A DNA stretch of 39,996 bases. It comes from a virus (lineage: Duplodnaviria; Caudoviricetes). Below, piece after piece: positions 1 to 38,897 of the stretch (position 1 is the stretch's first letter; the number at the start of each line of letters is the position of its first letter). Under the pieces are notes generated by a model. That model searched no databases, had not been told where the DNA came from, and worked only from the letters and a program-made list of their open reading frames with translations. The stretch is from the IMG/VR virus record IMGVR_UViG_3300038393_003168, positions 1 to 39,996 of that record. The stretch is one strand, 5' to 3'. The translations under genes were made by a program, and so were the position numbers.

Positions 1-1590
1 TTATGCCGCCCATTTTTTTAAAATTGCAACGTTTTTACTCGTCCACTTAACAGGGGAAATCTGAGTATCCCTAGGGGACGCCACGTTATCCCCTGTAGTG
101 GGAGCGGCGATTCGATAATGAATCGTGCAGTTCTCAGCTACAGGATCCAGGACAACACGATCAACAAGGCCGCTTAATGCGGCCTTGATCGTTTTTACGT
201 CGCCAGATTCAAGACTTTCCTGCAGTTGATCGGCCAGCAAGCGTAGTAGGCGGCGCACGTCATCTGCCGTGAATGCCTGTACGGATTCATGTTGCTGGGC
301 TCGTGTTCTCATTTCGGAGAGTTTTTCGATCAGTGCGCCCCGCTCCGTCTCCGCTTGAGCGACAGCACGGCGGTAGGCGTCCATTGTGGAATCTTCAGCG
401 TCGGCCAGTAAGTCGATCAGCCTGCCGATTTTCCGTGTCATGCCTTCAAGCTGGCGTTCCAATCCGGAAATCTTCCTGCCATCAACAGGATCGTCTATTT
501 CCTTTCGCATGGCGGCGAGGATCTGAGCCACTACCTCATCGGCCTGCAGATCTGTCACCAATCGATCAAGTACAACTCCGTCAACACGTCGGGCTGAAAT
601 CTTTTTCCCCTTCCCGAGTCGGTATAAAGCCGCATCCATGCGCGAATCCCATTCCCCATGCCATGCCTGCTCATCAGGTGAAACAAGCATTCCGGTGAGC
701 AAGTAAGGGCGACTGGTATCTTTCGCGCGCCGATGGCGTTGTTTTTCGATCTGCGCCAGCACTGCCTCTGCATCATCGTCGCTGACGATGGCTTGGTGTG
801 TGTTGCGGTTGATGACCCACTCGCTACGCGGGCGGCGCTTCTCCCCGCTCCGGTAGCCATCCGCCGTGCGTTCGTTATGCACGTTCCAGACCGTATGCCC
901 GGCATAAGTAAGGGCTTGCCATTCGAGGGAATTCAGGCTATCGACTGGCCAGGTAATCCCAAGACGTTCGACCAGTCGGCCACGGGCCTCGCCAGCTGCT
1001 CGCCCTTGCAGGTATTGCGCCACTTGTGGCGCATCTTCGTTTGGTACAAGTCTCGACTTGAGAACCGGTGCGCCGTCACGAATGGCCCCGGTACCTTGGT
1101 ATTCGAGCCGATAACCTCGTGGGGCGCGGCCACCGGCACGCCAACCTTGCCGCACGTTCTCTGCCATGCCGGCCAATCCCTTCGCCTTACTGGTGAGGCT
1201 GTGCCATTCGTCCATCGCCTGGAGAATGGATTTCAGCAGCATGCCGGTAATGGGGTCTGAATCGGGTACGTTCCGATAATGAATGACGATACCGGCCTTG
1301 TCGCATTCGTGTTCGAAAATCAGGGCGATATGTCGGCGCCTGGCAATGCGGGATGTGTCCAGCACCAGCACGTTTTCCCAAGCGCGTTCTGGTTGCCTCA
1401 ATGCGCGGATCATTTGCTGGAATCCTGGCCTGTCTTCATCCTTTCCGGATTCCACGGCATCGGCAAATTCCTGCGCTACGACAAGCCCCTTGGATGTTGC
1501 TAATTCATGGAGTGCGCGTCGCTGGGCGTCAATGGAGATGTCGCTGCGGTCTTTACTGCTCCGGAGGTACAGGGCGGCTCGATTGCTCAT
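1..1590 (-). CDS. int: Large serine recombinase (phage integrase)
   Basis: N-terminal resolvase motifs YLRSS..SIDAQ, ESGKDEDRPGFQQM, DTSRIAR; recombinase domain (GGRAPRGY, THQAIVS); C-terminal coiled coil; 529 aa. Confidence 0.95.
   Translation of the reverse strand: MSNRAALYLRSSKDRSDISIDAQRRALHELATSKGLVVAQEFADAVESGKDEDRPGFQQMIRALRQPERAWENVLVLDTSRIARRRHIALIFEHECDKAGIVIHYRNVPDSDPITGMLLKSILQAMDEWHSLTSKAKGLAGMAENVRQGWRAGGRAPRGYRLEYQGTGAIRDGAPVLKSRLVPNEDAPQVAQYLQGRAAGEARGRLVERLGITWPVDSLNSLEWQALTYAGHTVWNVHNERTADGYRSGEKRRPRSEWVINRNTHQAIVSDDDAEAVLAQIEKQRHRRAKDTSRPYLLTGMLVSPDEQAWHGEWDSRMDAALYRLGKGKKISARRVDGVVLDRLVTDLQADEVVAQILAAMRKEIDDPVDGRKISGLERQLEGMTRKIGRLIDLLADAEDSTMDAYRRAVAQAETERGALIEKLSEMRTRAQQHESVQAFTADDVRRLLRLLADQLQESLESGDVKTIKAALSGLVDRVVLDPVAENCTIHYRIAAPTTGDNVASPRDTQISPVKWTSKNVAILKKWAA
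43..101. other. Putative attP site, core CCCTAGGGGACGCCA (69-83) matching the tRNA-Glu 3' end
   Basis: 69-83 matches the 3' end of proteobacterial tRNA-Glu(UUC) (...CCCCTAGGGGACGCCA). Palindrome CCCTAGGG at 69-76 is flanked by inverted arms ACAGGGGA (50-57)/TCCCCTGT (89-96) and CCACT (43-47)/AGTGG (97-101). Confidence 0.8.
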
Positions 1591-1726
1591 TTTTGACGAC
1601 TTTGAGGTCAGTTTGTTGATTCAAGCGCAATAATAACCGAGCCAAACCGGTGAAATCTGCGCACGCAAGATCGCCGGCGGTTTCGACATGAACCGGCGGT
1701 TTTTTCTTGCTGATGACTGCGCTCAT
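1553..1726 (-). CDS. 57-aa small protein overlapping the integrase start; candidate recombination directionality factor
   Basis: Not in the ORF track. Translates as MSAVISKKKPPVHVETAGDLACADFTGLARLLLRLNQQTDLKVVKNEQSSRPVPPEQ, with a GGAG RBS, and fills the gap directly upstream of int. Function is inferred from position only. Confidence 0.5.
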   Translation of the reverse strand: MSAVISKKKPPVHVETAGDLACADFTGLARLLLRLNQQTDLKVVKNEQSSRPVPPEQ

Positions 1727-1729
1727 GTC

Positions 1730-2020
1730 CTACTCCAAATCAACCGGCTTGCTCAGATCAATGGCAAACACCTCGACCTCATCCGGCCCGAAATGCGAGT
1801 GCATCAGCTTGGTTTTGCGGTAGCCGTTCCATTCAAATATCAGGGTTCGATCAGGATCTCCCGCCTTCGGATAGCCGAGCGTGATGTAAATATTGTCGTA
1901 GTCTCGACCGACCAGACGCTTCGTCCAATAGTCGTTCGCCAGTCGGTATTCCTCTCCCTTGCAGCCAGCCTTGATGCTGTCGAAATACACGCGTTTTACC
2001 GATAAATGCAGATCGCTCAT
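1730..2020 (-). CDS. ASCH-domain protein
   Basis: LHLSVKRVYFDSIKAGCKGEEYR matches the ASCH GxKxxExR motif; YWTKRL and LGYPK are typical of phage ASCH proteins. Confidence 0.8.
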   Translation of the reverse strand: MSDLHLSVKRVYFDSIKAGCKGEEYRLANDYWTKRLVGRDYDNIYITLGYPKAGDPDRTLIFEWNGYRKTKLMHSHFGPDEVEVFAIDLSKPVDLE

Positions 2021-2022
2021 CT

Positions 2023-2109
2023 TCAATGTCCTTCCATATCCCTATCCATACCCCAAGCGATATAACCAATCACCAGTCCTATTACTATTCCGATGAGGAT
2101 GCAGGTCAT
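2023..2109 (-). CDS. 28-aa single-TM membrane peptide
   Basis: MTCILIGIVIGLVIGYIAWGMDRDMEGH with an AGGAG RBS; fits the operon gap. Confidence 0.5.
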   Translation of the reverse strand: MTCILIGIVIGLVIGYIAWGMDRDMEGH

Positions 2110-2131
2110 CTCTTCTCCTGATTAGGCGGCT

Positions 2132-2398
2132 TCACTTGATACGGTGCTGATGGACGCCAGTAATGCCTTTTGGGAGATCCGGAGTTTTGTCTTCGGTCGC
2201 CACTGTTGCGCCGCTTTCAAGGAACTTGCTCTGCTTCCCGCCTACGGCGCGTAGGTATTCCACCTCAACTTTGGCGCTGTTTATCACCGTCTGCGCGATG
2301 TCCGACATGGCCCTGGCATCTTCCACGTCCATATCTCCGTCTTTGAGCGCCTGCATCGTGTCGAAAAGATGCTCTCTCAGTTTGTCGATTGTGTTCAT
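2132..2398 (-). CDS. Hypothetical phage protein (helical), coupled to the HNH gene
   Basis: 88-aa ORF (LREHLFDTMQAL...IAQTVINSAKVEVEY); ATGA overlap with the upstream HNH gene. Confidence 0.75.
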   Translation of the reverse strand: MNTIDKLREHLFDTMQALKDGDMDVEDARAMSDIAQTVINSAKVEVEYLRAVGGKQSKFLESGATVATEDKTPDLPKGITGVHQHRIK

Positions 2399-2895
2399 GC
2401 TTGGCTCCGTTTGTTGATCATCCTATTGAGGACGGATTTCAGTTGGCAGGCGTATTGCACTTCCGGTGGGTAGCGGTGAATAGAGTTCCGGCGCATCAGC
2501 TCTTGTCGATCAATGCACTCAAGATTCTCGATGGCGATGTTTTCTCGGTCGCCGTCCTTGAAGACAACGGCGTGTCCAGGCGCGACCGGGCCGCAAGTTT
2601 CTTCCCACAGAAGGCGATGCGCTGCCACAAAATCAACATTCGGATTTCCAGTGTCCGATACTTTACGCTCAAGGTATCCCGAGGCGGAGATACGCTCCGT
2701 GCCGATTGGCTGCCAGTGTGGAGGCTTGTGGCCGGTCTTAAATCTTCCCGCACCCGGTTTTTTCAGGCCAAGCCTCGATGCCTTATGGTCGCAGGAGGTT
2801 TCCGAGCGCCCAAGCACCTGCGCAATGCTTCGATTCGACTCGATTGCATAGCGGCTCGTCAAAATAGCAATGTCTTCAGCGGTCCAGGCTTTCAT
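2395..2895 (-). CDS. HNH_3-type endonuclease-like protein with N-terminal HTH
   Basis: HRLLWEE..GP..GHAVVFKDGDRENIAIENL; N-terminal WTAEDIAIL...IAQVLGRS..KASRLGL. The usual catalytic His position is Phe. Confidence 0.8.
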   Translation of the reverse strand: MKAWTAEDIAILTSRYAIESNRSIAQVLGRSETSCDHKASRLGLKKPGAGRFKTGHKPPHWQPIGTERISASGYLERKVSDTGNPNVDFVAAHRLLWEETCGPVAPGHAVVFKDGDRENIAIENLECIDRQELMRRNSIHRYPPEVQYACQLKSVLNRMINKRSQA

Positions 2896-3005
2896 CTTTC
2901 CCCCTGCTTGCCGATAGCTGCTGCAGCGCGGACGATGGCACCGGCTACCTTGCTCAGTCCATGCTCAATGATTAAAGCGGCAAATAGTATGGAGAGTCCT
3001 ATCAT
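2892..3005 (-). CDS. 37-aa hydrophobic small protein
   Basis: MIGLSILFAALIIEHGLSKVAGAIVRAAAAIGKQGER; ATGA overlaps with both neighbours. Confidence 0.5.
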   Translation of the reverse strand: MIGLSILFAALIIEHGLSKVAGAIVRAAAAIGKQGER

Positions 3006-3280
3006 TTCTTTGCCTCGCTATCTACGGAATCATCATCTTCAGCGAGATAGGCGAAGCGGCATTCCGTTTCGCAGAAATGATGCCCGGGCCCTCCGCGATA
3101 GCCGTAATCAGTAGCGCCACAGTTGACGCATTCATAGACCGGCTGGCTGCACGGCGCTGGCAAATCCTTCGGGCATGGTCGGCCGCCATTCGATTCCCAG
3201 CGATGAAATCCCTTGGAGCATTGGCTCCCGCCAGCGTCGAATACAGCATCTGCGACCAGTCTTTGAAGTATCGACGTCAT
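3002..3280 (-). CDS. Cys-rich putative zinc-binding phage protein
   Basis: C...H, CP...CSQPVYECVNCG...C...C pattern; 92 aa. Confidence 0.65.
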   Translation of the reverse strand: MTSILQRLVADAVFDAGGSQCSKGFHRWESNGGRPCPKDLPAPCSQPVYECVNCGATDYGYRGGPGHHFCETECRFAYLAEDDDSVDSEAKK

Positions 3281-3331
3281 CTCAACCCTCCACGTTTTCC
3301 CCGTCGTTGGAGACGGTAGGGCGGCTATCTT

Positions 3332-3709
3332 TCATGCTGCACGTCTGTAGTTTTCGCTGTTGCGCCCGAAATAGATTGCTGCTGGTTTCATCTTGTAGGC
3401 TGGCGGCTGGATCACTGCTGCCATCAGCTTGCGCCAATTCGCCGGGGTGTTCAGCACCACAGGCCCAGCATCGCCGTCGATGTCACCTGGGGTCGGTGCT
3501 ACGGTGAGCACATCCACCACATCGCACGGCACCGCGATGTTGCCGCAACCGTCGTTGTAGTAGCCGAGGTGCGCCATCACGTTGTCGCGCTCATACCTTC
3601 CAGCCCATTCAAGTGCCCAGCAATAGCCTTTGTCGTCTGGACGCCAGAATGTGATGTAGCGATGCCGCTTATGCGAATGCTTCAGGCTGACGATGTAGAA
3701 GTAGCTCAC
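3332..3709 (-). CDS. Hypothetical phage protein
   Basis: 125-aa ORF in operon orientation (YITFWRPDDKGYCW..AGRY); overlaps the upstream gene stop. Confidence 0.75.
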   Translation of the reverse strand: MSYFYIVSLKHSHKRHRYITFWRPDDKGYCWALEWAGRYERDNVMAHLGYYNDGCGNIAVPCDVVDVLTVAPTPGDIDGDAGPVVLNTPANWRKLMAAVIQPPAYKMKPAAIYFGRNSENYRRAA

Positions 3710-5424
3710 GATCCCTCCTTATCGGCGGACGGGGCGGCGAGCATCGGCCTCCAGTGCGATGCGAATGTTTGATGGCTAACATGGAAGAAATCCCATCGCT
3801 GCCTTTTCTCATTCCATCGAATTGGCGTGGCGATGTCATACCAAGTCGGGTCCCAGCCAAGAACCACAGTCCCATCCTTCGGCGCTGTCTCGATTGGTTG
3901 CCACCCTTCCGCCACTCCCGGAGCAGTGCGAGATAGGGCGCGGGCAGCGGCGATCATCTTCTGGACGTAGCCTTCATGGTGCATCGGCAGGCCGTATTCT
4001 TCTGAGTCGTAATCCATTGCGATGTTGTGTAACTCGGTAAGCATCTTCTCGATGTCTTCATCGCTCACCGCCACTGGAGAATCGAGGGCGGCGCGGGCGG
4101 CATCAATACGGCGCTGTGCCTCTGCGTTTGGTTTGAATGCGCCTGAGGCGATGCGTGCCTCTTCGATTTCGAGCAGTCCTTTCAGCGCCTCCCGCTCCAT
4201 CGGCGCTGCTGCCTGTGGGGCTGCTTTGTCGTTTGTCGGCTTCTTCAATGCGCGAACCGCCGTTGCGCAGGAGTTGCAGACAAATTTGCTCTTGGGGTCG
4301 AGGTCTTCCTGCGACTCAAGTTCTTTGGCGCATGCCTCTATAGCCGCATTCCAGTTTGAAGCGGCAACGAAATTGAGTGCAGCGCTCCATCCTTCCGAGC
4401 GCAATTTCTCCGCATGCTCTTTGGGCTGTAGTGGTGCTGGTGAGGGAATGGAGGCGGCTAACATTTCCCACGTAAGTGGCTCGATCTGCTCGCCCATTTC
4501 GACGCAGTCGCAGCATGGCCCGCAAGTTTTGGAGCGCAGATTCCAAGAGTCGCCCCAGCCGGTATCGCGATTGGGGATAAATCGCCACAAGGCAGAGCAG
4601 ACGTTGCAGCGATGAGTCGGCAGTGCGCCTTTCATATTGTCCGGATGGTAGATTCCAGTACGCATTTGTGGATCGCCAAGATGCTCACGCTCTAATTCTT
4701 CGTAATCTGGCGCGGATGATGCAATTGGGCACATCGGATTTCCATGCTCGTCACCGATTACACCTTTCGGATGTACGCACTGCCCCGCAGCCATCGCGAA
4801 GCTGTCCTTTGCCATGCTTGATAGCACTTCCATGCGCGTCACGAGGAGTCGAAGCGGCAGCCCCTTCTTTATGGTTCCGCAGCCAACAGTGATGTCGCAC
4901 GGCAGCGGCCAATCGAGCGGGTCTACCGGCTCTTGCGCCTGTGCTGGCTCCGACATTTCGACTGCATACTGAGGGCTGCAAGTATGGATGCCGCCAGTGT
5001 TCCGCTTCCCGCATGCGGGGCAGAAATTCCGGGCTGGCTCATCCTGCGGCTTGCTGGCTGCATTGGGGGAGGATTGCAGTGCAAACTTTACGCCCGCATA
5101 GAAAGCGTTCATCACATCAGTTTTGATGTCCTGGCGGTCGTCACCATCGTAAAGCGCCGCCTTTGCCTCTGCGGCTGCAATCATGTGCTCGTCCGTCATC
5201 TCCCCTCTGGATTCCGAGGGGGATGATGGGGACATGCGAGCGCCAATAAGCTGATAGGCATCAGCGAGCAATTGGCCGGCAGCCTCCACCTTTTCCTTGG
5301 CTTCCGGCGTGGCCTGTATGGCCGGATGGGCTTCGATGTGTTCTTCGAGGTTGCATAATGCGACGTGAATTCGATCCGTGGCCTCGTGAAAATATCCGTC
5401 GCCGTCTTTCAGTTGATCAGCCAT
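3706..5424 (-). CDS. Mosaic Ea/Ead-like early protein with C-terminal DUF551-like module
   Basis: 572 aa; C-terminal GWQPIETAPKDGT...SHWRPML; internal CPACG, CNVC and CGPCC modules joined by Ala/Pro linkers. Confidence 0.75.
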   Translation of the reverse strand: MADQLKDGDGYFHEATDRIHVALCNLEEHIEAHPAIQATPEAKEKVEAAGQLLADAYQLIGARMSPSSPSESRGEMTDEHMIAAAEAKAALYDGDDRQDIKTDVMNAFYAGVKFALQSSPNAASKPQDEPARNFCPACGKRNTGGIHTCSPQYAVEMSEPAQAQEPVDPLDWPLPCDITVGCGTIKKGLPLRLLVTRMEVLSSMAKDSFAMAAGQCVHPKGVIGDEHGNPMCPIASSAPDYEELEREHLGDPQMRTGIYHPDNMKGALPTHRCNVCSALWRFIPNRDTGWGDSWNLRSKTCGPCCDCVEMGEQIEPLTWEMLAASIPSPAPLQPKEHAEKLRSEGWSAALNFVAASNWNAAIEACAKELESQEDLDPKSKFVCNSCATAVRALKKPTNDKAAPQAAAPMEREALKGLLEIEEARIASGAFKPNAEAQRRIDAARAALDSPVAVSDEDIEKMLTELHNIAMDYDSEEYGLPMHHEGYVQKMIAAARALSRTAPGVAEGWQPIETAPKDGTVVLGWDPTWYDIATPIRWNEKRQRWDFFHVSHQTFASHWRPMLAAPSADKEGS

Positions 5425-11290: not shown

Positions 11291-11539
11291 TTAATCGAGG
11301 GCTTTCAGGAAATCCAATTTCGAGACGCCTGCCTGCGAGACTATGCTTTTTATATTCTTCGCGCTGACTTGCCCGTTATGACAATCCACCGTTACCTTGT
11401 ACTTGTGACCGTTGAGAATTTTTTCGTATTGTTCGTGGGATGTGCCCTTTTGCGGCTGTTTGACAAAGCCGAGACGTTCGACGGCCCGCCGCACCTTATG
11501 GCATGGCTGCGGCTTGTGCGGCAGGAAAAGCTTGATCAC
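11291..11539 (-). CDS. hicA: HicA-family mRNA interferase toxin
   Basis: VRRAVERLGF...KGTSHEQY...VTVDCH...KSIVSQAG; dsRBD-like HicA with G-x-S-H catalytic His. Confidence 0.85.
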   Translation of the reverse strand: MIKLFLPHKPQPCHKVRRAVERLGFVKQPQKGTSHEQYEKILNGHKYKVTVDCHNGQVSAKNIKSIVSQAGVSKLDFLKALD

Positions 11540-11886
11540 GCCAGGACGACTGGCAGATGCTCTTTAAATGTGCGCTTGGCGGGATCGCCATGATGCTTCA
11601 TCCCGCGAATGGCGCAGGCAATACGGGCGAGATGATAGCGAATGCGGAAAGATAGAGGAGCACGACGCGGCATCAGATCGTCAATATATTGACGATCCAC
11701 GGTCAGCGCCTCTCTCACATATTGTTCGATTTGGGCGTGCAGCTTAGCCTTAACCTCTTTGGCGCTTCCTGCTTGGGCGGCCAGATTCAGGTCAATGCAA
11801 ATCGCAAACCACGAGCCGTCTCGCTCGCGTTCTGCGTAACAACGCAATACGATGTCGCTAGGTGTCATTCTCTTCCGTTGCAACAT
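11536..11886 (-). CDS. hicB: HicB-like antitoxin without DNA-binding domain
   Basis: WFAICIDLNLAAQAGSAKEVKAKLHAQIEQY is the partial RNase H fold of HicB; upstream of and overlapping hicA (GTGA). Confidence 0.8.
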   Translation of the reverse strand: MLQRKRMTPSDIVLRCYAERERDGSWFAICIDLNLAAQAGSAKEVKAKLHAQIEQYVREALTVDRQYIDDLMPRRAPLSFRIRYHLARIACAIRGMKHHGDPAKRTFKEHLPVVLA

Positions 11887-12095
11887 GACAACTCCCAAAT
11901 TTTCTTGTTATATGCTGTATGAAAAGCCACTACAACTGTGATCATAGCATACCGCCCAGGCGTAGGTAGTCTAGACCGGTCTGCTGTGGTTTGAGGAAAA
12001 CCAAGCCTTATTCTTGCTTTAACGGCGGGCCCGCATGGGCACTTTAGCGCTGCCGCCCACATCCCTTCCATTCCCACCTATCCCAGGGAAGAGGA

Positions 12096-12527: not shown

Positions 12528-12716
12528 ATGCAAAATCAGTTTGAAGCTCGACTCATCCAAGCTTTCCGCGCAATGCACCCAGAAGAGAGAGAAATGCTTC
12601 TGAATCTCGCATGTGCGCGAGCGTCCGAATACCGACAGGAAAAACCGGACCTACGTCTCGTCATTGGTGGCGCGAATCCACCGAGCTTGACTGGCCTTAG
12701 CAGCGCCACGGGCTGA
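12528..12716 (+). CDS. Putative SOS-inducible antirepressor resembling the repressor C-terminal domain
   Basis: 62 aa downstream of the LexA box. LIQAFRAMHPEEREMLLNLACARA aligns without gaps to cI LISLYQQASDRGRKFILDSARGAA. Overlaps the cI 3' end in antisense. Confidence 0.65.
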   Translation: MQNQFEARLIQAFRAMHPEEREMLLNLACARASEYRQEKPDLRLVIGGANPPSLTGLSSATG

Positions 12717-13040
12717 GTCAAGAATAAATTTCCGGCCTCGGTCGCTTGCCTGCTGGTAAAGCGAAATCAATTCGATAATCTCGTCGGCAATAACGGCGGG
12801 ATCGGCGCTGGGCACCTCCGGTTTCTTCTTGAGGCTTAGAACCTGGGCAGTATCGTCTACGCGGTCTAAATAGCCGGTGCCCATACCATAATCGTCTTCT
12901 AGCCTCCGGGCCGCCTTTTCCCCAAAGGAAGCGTCACCGCTTAGAAGCTGAGAGAAATAGCTTTTCTCGGCTGGCGGGACTCCATTCTTGGCAACCCATT
13001 TCGATAGCTGGGCGCGGCGTACTTCATGCGCAGGTTTCAT
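12651..13040 (-). CDS. cI: Prophage repressor (CI-like, no S24 autopeptidase domain)
   Basis: RRAQL...SYFSQLLSGDASFGEKAARRLEDDYGMGTGYLD is a lambdoid repressor N-terminal domain; divergent from cro; 129 aa. Confidence 0.8.
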   Translation of the reverse strand: MKPAHEVRRAQLSKWVAKNGVPPAEKSYFSQLLSGDASFGEKAARRLEDDYGMGTGYLDRVDDTAQVLSLKKKPEVPSADPAVIADEIIELISLYQQASDRGRKFILDSARGAAKASQARWIRATNDET

Positions 13041-13050
13041 GATGCGCAGA

Positions 13051-13108
13051 AGTTTAGTCTTTTCTAAATTAGTATTCACTTGACTTTGGGTTTAGTAATA
13101 ACTAAACT
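13051..13108. promoter_or_regulatory. oR: three operators, pR and pRM
   Basis: TTTAG-TCTTTT-CTAAA (13053-13068), ATTAG-TATTCA-CTTGA (13068-13083), TTTAG-TAATAA-CTAAA (13091-13106). pR is TTGACT(13080)-17 bp-TAAACT(13103). Minus-strand -10 TAAACT at 13051-13056. Confidence 0.85.
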
Positions 13109-15175: not shown

Positions 15176-15736
15176 GTGCTGACAAAAGAAAAACTGAAAG
15201 CGCATCTCCACTACGATCCAGAGACAGGGCTATTCACATGGATTAAGCCAACTGGCGATCGAGTTCGTGTGGGATACGTAGCCGGCTGCAAACGCAGCGA
15301 TAACGGATATGTGATCCTCAAATTCGAACGGTGTTATCTGGCACACCGGCTCGCATTTTTATACATGACAGGCTCGATCCCCAAGTTCGTCGACCATATA
15401 AATGGCAAAAGAGACGATAACCGCTGGTGCAATTTGCGCAGCGTGAGCCGCTCCCAAAACGGCCAAAACATGGCCCTGCCAAATACCAACAAGAGCGGCG
15501 TAATCGGTGTCTTTTGGAACAAAGGCAAAAACAAATGGACGGCGAGGATCAAGGTCGAGCAGCGCGACTTCCATCTCGGCCATTTCGTAGATTTTGATGA
15601 TGCAGTAAAAGCCCGCAGGGCCGCAGAAGTGGTGCATGGCTTCCATCAAAACCACGGCAAAAGACTCGTGCGCGGTGTGATGCTCGAATACCCGCCTGAG
15701 CCTAACTCGGAAAACACAAAGCGGAGGCGCGCGTGA
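15176..15736 (+). CDS. HNH homing endonuclease with AP2-type DNA-binding domain
   Basis: LHYDPETGLFTW, AHRLAFLYMTG, VDHINGKRDDNRWCNLR, NKSGVIGV..WTARI...LGHF..AVKARRAAE. Confidence 0.9.
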   Translation: MLTKEKLKAHLHYDPETGLFTWIKPTGDRVRVGYVAGCKRSDNGYVILKFERCYLAHRLAFLYMTGSIPKFVDHINGKRDDNRWCNLRSVSRSQNGQNMALPNTNKSGVIGVFWNKGKNKWTARIKVEQRDFHLGHFVDFDDAVKARRAAEVVHGFHQNHGKRLVRGVMLEYPPEPNSENTKRRRA

Positions 15737-16457
15737 AAAGCAAGTTCGACACGGAAGCTGAACTGTGCGCGGCATTCATTAAATGGGCTGAGAAGCAGGG
15801 GTGGAAATCGTATGCAGAGACGGCCGGATGGGACATTCTATTGGTGGCGGCTGATGGCACACAGATCGGGGTCCAGGCCAAACTGCGTTTCAATATGAAG
15901 GTGCTTCAGCAAGCCGTTGATTATGGCTTATGGGGAAGAGGAATCGGGCCGGATTTTCGGGCAGTGCTCGTTCCCGATTCGGGGGGGAAGGATATATGTG
16001 CGGCACTTGGCATGACCATGATTTATTGCGGCGGCTCATGGTATGACCATTGCGAATTTTCCCGAGGCTCCCTACTTCTTCTCCTCATTGTGTAGGTGAT
16101 TGGCATTGGCTAAATCCAGAAAAGCGCCATCCTGTCCCGGCCTATGTTCCAGATGTTATTGCTGGCTCATCTTCTCCAGTGCAACTAACGCAGTGGAAGA
16201 TCGGCGCGTTGAAGTTGACGGCGTTATTGGAGATTCGCGGATTCGTTACCAGAGCTGACTTTAAGACCGTAGGCATCGACCATCGGCGCTGGGTCAATGA
16301 CCCGAATTGGCTTGTCCCAACTGACCGACCAGGGCAATTTGCGCGTGGCCCGGAGCTGCGGTTTGACCAGCAGCACCCGATGGTTTATGCAGAAATCCGC
16401 GCCGAGATCGAGAAGCAGCAGAAAGGCTCCGATATGTTTTCGGCGGAGGTCGCATGA
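15733..16457 (+). pseudogene. Probable single PD-(D/E)xK-like phage gene split by a frameshift near 16057-16063
   Basis: ORF 15733-16095 (ETAGWDILLV...IGVQAK) ends in an unnatural tail (RGSLLLLLIV), while the -1 frame continues PRLP...VPDVIAGSSSPVQLTQWKIGA to 16457 with no good start of its own. Confidence 0.6.
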
Positions 16458-16912
16458 CGCTAAAAGACCAGACCATCGCCCGCTGTATGCGCCGGCCACC
16501 GGATTTCATCATCGGCACCAAGAATGATCCGTACCTCTTGCGTTGGTTCGTCGTTCCGTGCAACCCCATTTTCAACATCTACCGCCACATCTTCAAGCGA
16601 AGTGACGACGACCGCGCACGCCATACGCATCCGTGGCTATTCAATATCAGCCTGCTTTACCGAGGCGGATACCGGGAATGGTTCGGTGATGGTCCGACCG
16701 ATTATGTCGATCGTCGGGCGCCGCATATCAAATTCCGTTGGGGTGGCGCACCGCATCGTATCGAACTCACGCACGGTGACTGCGAAACCATCTTCATCAC
16801 TGGTCCTCGCGTGAGGCAATGGGGTTTCCTGTGCCCTCAGGGATTTGTGCACTGGAAGAAATTCACCAAGAGCGACAACCCTGGCGAAGTCGGGAAAGGA
16901 TGCGACGCATGA
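16454..16912 (+). CDS. Cupin-fold (cysteine dioxygenase-like) phage protein
   Basis: YLLRW...H.FKRSDDDRARHTHPW...GGYRE...HRIEL...TIFITGPRVRQWGF. Confidence 0.7.
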   Translation: MTLKDQTIARCMRRPPDFIIGTKNDPYLLRWFVVPCNPIFNIYRHIFKRSDDDRARHTHPWLFNISLLYRGGYREWFGDGPTDYVDRRAPHIKFRWGGAPHRIELTHGDCETIFITGPRVRQWGFLCPQGFVHWKKFTKSDNPGEVGKGCDA

Positions 16913-38648: not shown

Positions 38649-38897
38649 GTGACCATGCAAAGCCACGATCAAATTTCCCAAGAAGCCGCCGACAGGGCTG
38701 TAAAAAAGGTATTTGCAATTCTCGGCGTTGACATAGACAAGCCGGAATCGGTTGAAGAGTTTAGAGAGGATCTGCGATTCGGAAAGCGGATGCGTAAGGC
38801 GGCAGACCACGGAATGATTGCGCTAATCGGCGTGACGTTTGTTGGCTTTGGCTATGCGGTATGGGCAGGCATCGTTTCCAAAATTGGGGGGCATTGA
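38649..38897 (+). CDS. Single-TM protein, putative holin/antiholin
   Basis: C-terminal TM GMIALIGVTFVGFGYAVWAGIV; directly upstream of the endolysin. Confidence 0.55.
   Translation: MTMQSHDQISQEAADRAVKKVFAILGVDIDKPESVEEFREDLRFGKRMRKAADHGMIALIGVTFVGFGYAVWAGIVSKIGGH

Follow-up and report, generated by a model that had tools for sequence, protein, structure and literature searches.

A phage large serine integrase gene that runs through its own attP, and the likely degron tail that integration at tRNA-Glu would replace

Attachment sites within integrase genes are established for tyrosine integrases, including those of Mx8, Mx9 and SSV (PMC6070905, PMC4383910). In Mx8 and Mx9, attP lies inside int and integration gives the enzyme a new C-terminus and altered specificity; the effect reported is on activity and specificity, not on proteolysis (PMC6070905, PMC4383910). 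In phage BPs, a C-terminal protease tag that is encoded across attP is lost on integration, and ClpXP-type turnover sets the outcome (PMC3694055). There it is the repressor gene that is split, and Int retains its own tag whether or not the phage is integrated. DsiB, the ssrA-specific serine integrase of Dehalococcoides islands, is encoded by a gene whose 3' end overlaps attL in every case, and its authors speculated that the protein has full function only on the circle or in a stack (PMC3146451). The recombinase of phiRSM acts at the 3' end of a tRNA gene in a betaproteobacterium, but it is a small serine recombinase directed to tRNA-Ser, and the sections of that report describing the site place attP between ORFs, with no C-terminal swap (PMC3816273). 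According to Islander 2014, no serine integrase was known to use a tRNA gene as its target, and the main text of Durrant et al. makes no mention of tRNA. Our literature search, with supplements and most subscription papers outside its scope, found neither a tRNA-Glu serine integrase family nor an integrase that sheds its own degron; tables of TIGER/IOD or Durrant et al. may list members of the family without comment.

Like DsiB, the integrase described here is a large serine recombinase. In both, the 3' end of the gene overlaps attL, and the reading frame continues antisense through a target of the tDNA type. Our integrase differs in that the target is tRNA-Glu rather than tmRNA, so that the ssrA targeting of DsiB/CcrB-type enzymes is absent, and in that the element is a phage rather than an IME with a second recombinase, DsiA. 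The C-terminal region of DsiB is divergent, and the available text of that report describes no conserved tail or degron (PMC3146451). With the canonical integrases of LI/A118, SPbeta, Bxb1 and phiC31 our enzyme shares the CAT-RD-ZD-CC fold, sites of about 50 bp, a central dinucleotide and a 5-bp shift, as far as these are covered in the parts of the two reports used (PMC3783163, PMC11722253). It departs from them in its tRNA target, its att site within the gene, the lack of zinc-ligand cysteines in the ZD and an extra C-terminal strand. From BPs it differs in that the integrase itself loses the candidate tag.

The DNA analyzed (hereafter the window) is a whole virus record of 39,996 bp found in soil metagenome runs. 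Its gene content is that of a lambdoid-style temperate phage (terminase, portal, major head protein, NinB/NinG, DnaC-like ATPase and GH108 endolysin). The host is probably a betaproteobacterium, since the closest integrated relatives point there (L032, a Burkholderiaceae MAG, 66%). In an annotated phage collection the related integrases were all distant (35 records, each <60% identical and none covering 80%), and no cultured close phage was therefore identified. No tRNA gene was present within the 39,996 bp, an Rfam scan of positions 1-2000 returned a chance match only, a sigma-70-like promoter was not found at 1-2200, and none of the RNA data sets listed carried the record. An ORF at 12651-13079, about 12 kb from attP, is regulator-like (phrog_5736, E 1e-7), and together with a divergent small ORF opposite it appears to form a cI/cro arrangement. 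The original prediction likened the locus to the integration-dependent immunity of BPs. The likeness holds insofar as a tail is removed on integration, but attP lies in int and the phage has a repressor-like gene apart from it, which makes integration-dependent immunity improbable. Beside the immunity region, two overlapping ORFs of 82 and 120 aa (11291-11898, minus strand) resemble, as judged by eye, a HicA/HicB toxin-antitoxin pair. The window also has two HNH_3 endonuclease genes (2395-2895, minus strand, and 15176-15736, plus strand), the first of which, together with 2132-2398, was found again upstream of int in related phages. A PHROG match at 16454-16912 (plus strand) is annotated as cysteine dioxygenase (E 2e-45), and positions 3869-3915, within an unannotated 572-aa ORF (3706-5424), are matched by many unrelated soil contigs.

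The features of the locus are collected in Table 1. The integrase has an N-terminal resolvase-type catalytic domain (PF00239, E 4.6e-20) in which Y8, R10 and S12 are invariant in the family alignment, and S12 is the presumed nucleophile. This is followed by a Recombinase domain (PF07508), comprising the ZD/DBD2 with an inserted coiled coil. The best Foldseek matches were the integrases of SPbeta, phiC31 and Bxb1 (E to 7e-16), and a VIA alignment to 9dxh covered 451 residues with a Z of 15.9; the high rmsd of 31.3 comes from domain positions. No cysteine occurs in residues 290-335 of either the window integrase or the consensus, and the predicted structure indicates a degenerate ZD that retains its fold. 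Among the window ORFs scanned (26 and 30 ORFs), neither an RDF nor a DsiA-type partner small serine recombinase was identified.

Table 1. Coordinates of the integrase gene, the attachment site and neighboring features in the window
Feature	Position	Strand	Basis or remark
Large serine integrase gene running through its own attP	1-1590	-	529 aa; Pfam Resolvase + Recombinase; fold match SPbeta, Bxb1, phiC31
P-arm-encoded swappable tail, DTQISPVKWTSKNVAILKKWAA and stop, 22 aa	1-68	-	Predicted strand 514-522 and basic-AA end (likely ClpX degron)
P-side inverted-repeat arm (putative ZD/DBD2 motif; resembles tRNA T-stem 5' strand)	43-57		Inverted repeat
15-nt identity to tRNA-Glu(TTC) 3' end	69-83	+	Sequence match
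Putative crossover dinucleotide TA	72-73		tRNA positions 65/66, T-stem/acceptor junction
Acceptor stem and CCA restored; antisense encodes (V)ASP	74-83	+	Part of 69-83
P'-side inverted-repeat arm, within int coding sequence	89-101		Inverted repeat
Intrinsic-terminator-like hairpin and T run, tRNA-sense strand, inside int CDS	157-197	+	z -6.3

As predicted, the int ORF reads straight through attP, ending in VASPR followed by the tail, and its last 27 codons occupy and pass the 15-nt copy of the tRNA-Glu 3' end. That copy, CCCTAGGGGACGCCA, is identical to the last 15 nt of those tRNA-Glu(TTC) genes in which TA occupies the corresponding position, for example those beside relatives L039 and L042; identity was judged on genes beside relatives and not on the E. 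coli gene. The 10-mer GGGGACGCCA occurs once in the window. The imperfect inverted repeat that had been proposed to flank the core is present as 13 bp with a 2-nt bulge, and 8 bp of it (50-57/89-96) are perfect. In the family, arm pairing across 66 free sites is strongest around an axis that lies 10.5 nt inside the CCA end (S=21), and in 109 attL sites the symmetry peak is displaced by 5 (S=16). Because the axis sits 10.5 nt from CCA and moves by 5 in attL, we place the crossover at the TA dinucleotide. The far arms of the window pair one base off the family axis, as do those of about a third of sites, and the central dinucleotide varies with the host tRNA (AC, TA, AA or AG). Short att sites, a central dinucleotide and a ZD motif that lies 5 bp closer in attB than in attP are all features of serine integrases, for which a 5-bp shift of the ZD motif between attP and attB has been described (PMC3783163); SPbeta uses a 4-bp shift (PMC11722253). 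The additional match of TAACAGGGG to the tRNA just before the T-loop was borne out, but it is best read as a binding motif of the zinc-ribbon domain that lies 5 bp further out in attP than in the tRNA: the T-stem strand of the tRNA is the attB motif, which explains the match.

Six elements (L142, L147, L148, L152, L154 and L158) have the central ~22 bp of attP flipped relative to int, with intact arms. They read S-N/K/Q-P-R-G-D-A, out of frame in L152, and lie within one 28-tip clade with Lysobacter-type elements, in which they are not monophyletic. In L142, L147 and L154, a tRNA-Asp(GTC) gene is found just beyond the int stop. Such elements would integrate in the opposite orientation and might supply a replacement tRNA-Asp, although they might also be a hairpin-inversion artefact.

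To compare C-termini we gathered 271 loci from collections of viruses, genomes and metagenomes. After removal of 40 partial or distant loci, 24 of the remaining 231 were excluded for lack of a stop or of an in-frame core, and 207 were classified. Among these, 128 were of the attL type (ending GFEPxxxP and stop) and 79 were long-tailed; 109 attL junctions and 66 long-tailed sequences (the window included) were unique. ARAGORN called a tRNA-Glu(TTC) antisense to int in 110 of the 128 attL loci and in 0 of the 79 long-tailed ones, and the target was tRNA-Glu(TTC) in all 110 called cases. The 18 attL loci without a called tRNA were mostly cut by contig ends, and a few were broken near the anticodon loop. 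A scripted classification of 121 proteins (the best 120 matches and the query) gave 94 long ends, 19 tRNA-derived ends and 8 unclassified. Hence relatives do not keep one C-terminus, and integrated members carry the expected ASPRGFEP beside tRNA-Glu, with a TGA in the int frame that comes from the anticodon arm; three end earlier, at GFEPL. The particular ending anticipated from the E. coli tRNA, GFEPLLPP, is the commonest in the family, but the closest integrated relatives (66-70% identical) end in GFEPLYSP, as the integrated ending depends on the host tRNA. Comparative genomics thus bears out tRNA-Glu as the target, attP inside int and the exchange of the C-terminus, and the arrangement as read from these loci corresponds to that of Mx8. 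The family is found in phages and islands and is spread over Beta- and Gammaproteobacteria.

The two endings might instead mark two separate lineages. This was rejected on a 285-tip tree, on which the state changes 54 times (shuffled mean 91, minimum 78), and by bodies 95% identical that occur in both states (L194/L033 and L034/L193). That the labels are more clustered than shuffled ones is expected from the sampling, which is viral versus genome. The 10-tip clade of the window holds six long and four short forms. Two further groups of loci were observed. In L063, L159, L219, L220 and L269 the core is out of frame with int (for example, ending RYRERVMS), as in frameshifted members. In L056, L067, L252 and L266 Int has a tRNA-derived end and the copy of the tRNA breaks off close to the anticodon loop; in L056 an intact tRNA-Glu is found 9 kb further on. 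This suggests a second island inserted at an anticodon-loop site of the same tRNA.

If integration detaches the tail, it should lie orphaned at the far end of the element. Thirty integrated genomes were walked for up to about 50 kb. A second core was found at the distal junction in 18 of the 30, and within 10 kb in 4 small elements; it was not found in 12 of the 30 walked genomes, several of which were limited by contig ends. The identity of this core with attL begins at CCA and spans 12-19 nt, never fewer than 12. An orphan tail, in frame or near frame, was present at the distal junction of those 22 elements, and in the int frame reads, for example, FRAPRNRRAA (L071) or RSRYRPAA (L105) before the stop. 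Five of the 22 end in AA and 10 in A, and some have decayed, with the stop or frame lost. Seven elements have a nearest free relative with at least 60% identity in the body; in five of these, the tail of that relative came within the top 5 of 157 when ranked by similarity to the orphan tail. Overall the median rank was 64 of 157, as distant relatives give no signal, and across all 93 free matches tail similarity did not correlate with body identity (Spearman -0.02), so that the relation is confined to close relatives. An empty attB for L105, in which the sequence from beyond the junction directly follows tRNA-Glu, was found in 2 of 19 same-genus genomes searched; none was found for L098, whose genus has two genomes. 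A 10-nt pattern search across five genomes was too unspecific. In L092 a tRNA-Asp adjoins the distal junction, and a host Ala-Glu-Asp cluster was therefore probably split. A P'-like left arm was seen at the distal junctions of L052 (L284:3118), L082, L084 and L096. In L052, an int remnant (residues 420-506) reads into the distal junction, which identifies stacked elements. As judged from the DNA of the family, then, the target is tRNA-Glu, the tRNA is restored, the C-terminus has two states and the tail is left orphaned at the far junction.

The tail that is lost has a marked ending. Among 155 unique long tails, 85 end in AA. Of 839 control ORFs in those loci, 36 do so (Fisher p about 1e-50, with kinship uncorrected); the controls are all open frames of at least 150 aa, not curated genes, and the sequences are not phylogenetically independent. 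AA ended 0 of 57 and 1 of 44 stretches in other reading frames and 0 of 52 attL tails. The remaining 70 of 155 long tails lack AA, 93 end in [AV]A and 111 in A, and R or K dominates positions -3 and -4. The window's own ending, KWAA, is a minority form (4 of 155). Translational coupling was considered as a source of the ending and rejected: a coupled downstream ORF was present in only 2 of 33 cases, and the AA tails use all four Ala codons and all three stops. Such a pattern indicates selection on the ending at the level of protein. ClpX C-motif 1 (xAA) and C-motif 2 (basic residues and VA) are listed in a published table (PMC9775585), and the long-tail ends fit both, having either xAA-COOH or basic residues with a small hydrophobic end. 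Because AA is enriched with all Ala codons in use, the ending is likely a ClpXP-type degron. Pro precedes the tRNA-derived stop in 120 of 128 integrated forms. A Pro before the stop can itself provoke tmRNA tagging, and this context could offset the stability of the integrated form.

The reading we lean towards is that attP occupies the 3' end of int so that integration replaces a likely degron tail and converts a short-lived enzyme into a stable one. Integration would swap a conserved 22-residue tail for about 8 residues encoded antisense to the tRNA. The free form of Int would be a ClpXP substrate and the prophage form would not, so that Int from infecting or excised copies would be transient and the prophage would make lasting Int for excision. 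Degradation of the free form and stability of the prophage form are what we infer from the ending, and the switch is well supported at the level of DNA, its protein side being drawn from the motif.

The tail is not merely a floppy tag, since a strand at 514-522 is confidently predicted by AlphaFold in the free form (pLDDT about 89). For an integrated relative, the predicted structure has an intact ZD hairpin but a disordered end where the sequence comes from the tRNA. These models, and a conserved P-V-x-W, would also suit the main alternative, a switch of activity like that of Mx8, in which the strand docks on ZD/DBD2 and tunes activity or directionality, with the AA end secondary. The strand might, for example, favor attP x attB synapsis or occupy the RDF surface, leaving the prophage form excision-biased or weak. 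The absence of an RDF among the scanned ORFs agrees with this, as do the altered specificity that follows the swap in Mx8 (PMC6070905) and, in the portion of the SPbeta study used here, the binding of the RDF to DBD2 and an effect on directionality of Int F532, near the C-terminus (PMC11722253). Yet strong selection on the last two residues would be left unexplained, the P of PV is partly forced by a CCCC motif in the DNA, and the tails vary widely in sequence and in length (8-36 aa past the ASPR motif across loci). We consider such a switch rather unlikely, but it can coexist with the degron model.

A trivial explanation is that the gene grew through attP, that the tail merely reaches a stop and that the isoforms are alike. 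McMurdie et al. offered this kind of reading for the divergent post-attL region of DsiB, in the part of the report that treats it (PMC3146451). The canonical fold of our integrase also ends before the core: the alignment with most solved large serine integrase chains stops at about residue 493-497, and with some it reaches 512-518, and the prophage form therefore keeps that fold. An incidental overlap does not account for an AA ending in 55% of tails when 4% of control ORFs and 0-2% of the other frames have one and the choice of codons is free, or for the enrichment of R/K at -3 and -4 and the ordered strand in the prediction. We regard it as very improbable.

Integration at the 3' end of a tRNA gene would also bring a new sequence downstream of it. 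The terminator-like hairpin lies about 75-110 nt past CCA, and hairpins of this kind occur in the first ~200 nt of 38 of 174 loci, where synonymous resampling predicts 8.4 ± 2.6. In the case of the window itself, 29 of 500 synonymous resamples pass, and its own case is therefore only suggestive. After integration the hairpin would stop read-through from the tRNA. In L105 the element displaces a host hairpin that follows the tRNA, which makes a replacement terminator plausible. A more speculative proposal, which we hold to be doubtful as a whole, is that recombination into tRNA-Glu strips both the degron and the extra DBD2 strand and so acts as a self-contained integration memory, with the tail serving as stability control and built-in directionality factor while the same gene supplies a terminator for the tRNA.

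The joining of P and P' in the record had been taken to mean that it is the free form. This is likely, but stacked elements also give P-P' junctions, as L052 shows. We are fairly confident that the record is a free or excised circle. It could instead be a prophage stacked behind a family member at the tRNA, with positions 1-68 a borrowed P arm. The record begins exactly at the integrase stop codon and ends exactly at another stop codon, like trimmed proviruses; the int stop coincides with the record end in 11 of 26 attL viral loci and in 0 of 46 long-tailed ones; and stacks are real in relatives. In addition, the X1 contig that covers the region begins at 54, the first 31-mer past CCA, and is continuous across 69. 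This fits a branch on the P side only and is a hint, but X1 may be the source sample (61% of X1 was covered). No attL or attR contig, including a second junction on the P side, was seen among X1-X3 contigs matching window 1-4000. Pairing of the arms speaks for the circle: a complementarity score of 10 is reached in 17% of cognate and 2.2% of non-cognate pairs, and 0 of 65 other right arms reach it with the window's left arm. Similarly, the three bodies most like that of the window carry the three tails most like its own, and the free phage L002 has a homolog of the right-end ORF (38655-38897) 2.7 kb past its int stop and convergent with it, an order as expected from a circle. A stacked origin thus seems to us unlikely, and the question is independent of the tail-swap mechanism.

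A parallel exists in lambda, where sib, an mRNA element beyond the crossover, destabilizes int in the free phage and is detached in the prophage. The tail likewise lies beyond the crossover and would be destabilizing, but it is a peptide, and its exchange may be viewed by analogy as a protein-level version of sib retroregulation. If so, the logics of Mx8 (tail swap), BPs (tag loss) and lambda sib would join in one gene, adding a compact means of linking the level or direction of the integrase to the state of integration. In this family the T-arm of a tRNA acts as an attB half-site for large serine integrases, which runs counter to the earlier view that only tyrosine integrases have tRNA targets, and the question left by DsiB of what role the overlap of gene and att site plays becomes directly testable. 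Integrases mined from prophages of the tRNA-Glu family are in the truncated form, and in non-model proteobacteria a serine integrase whose native landing site at tRNA-Glu is restored could be a tool.
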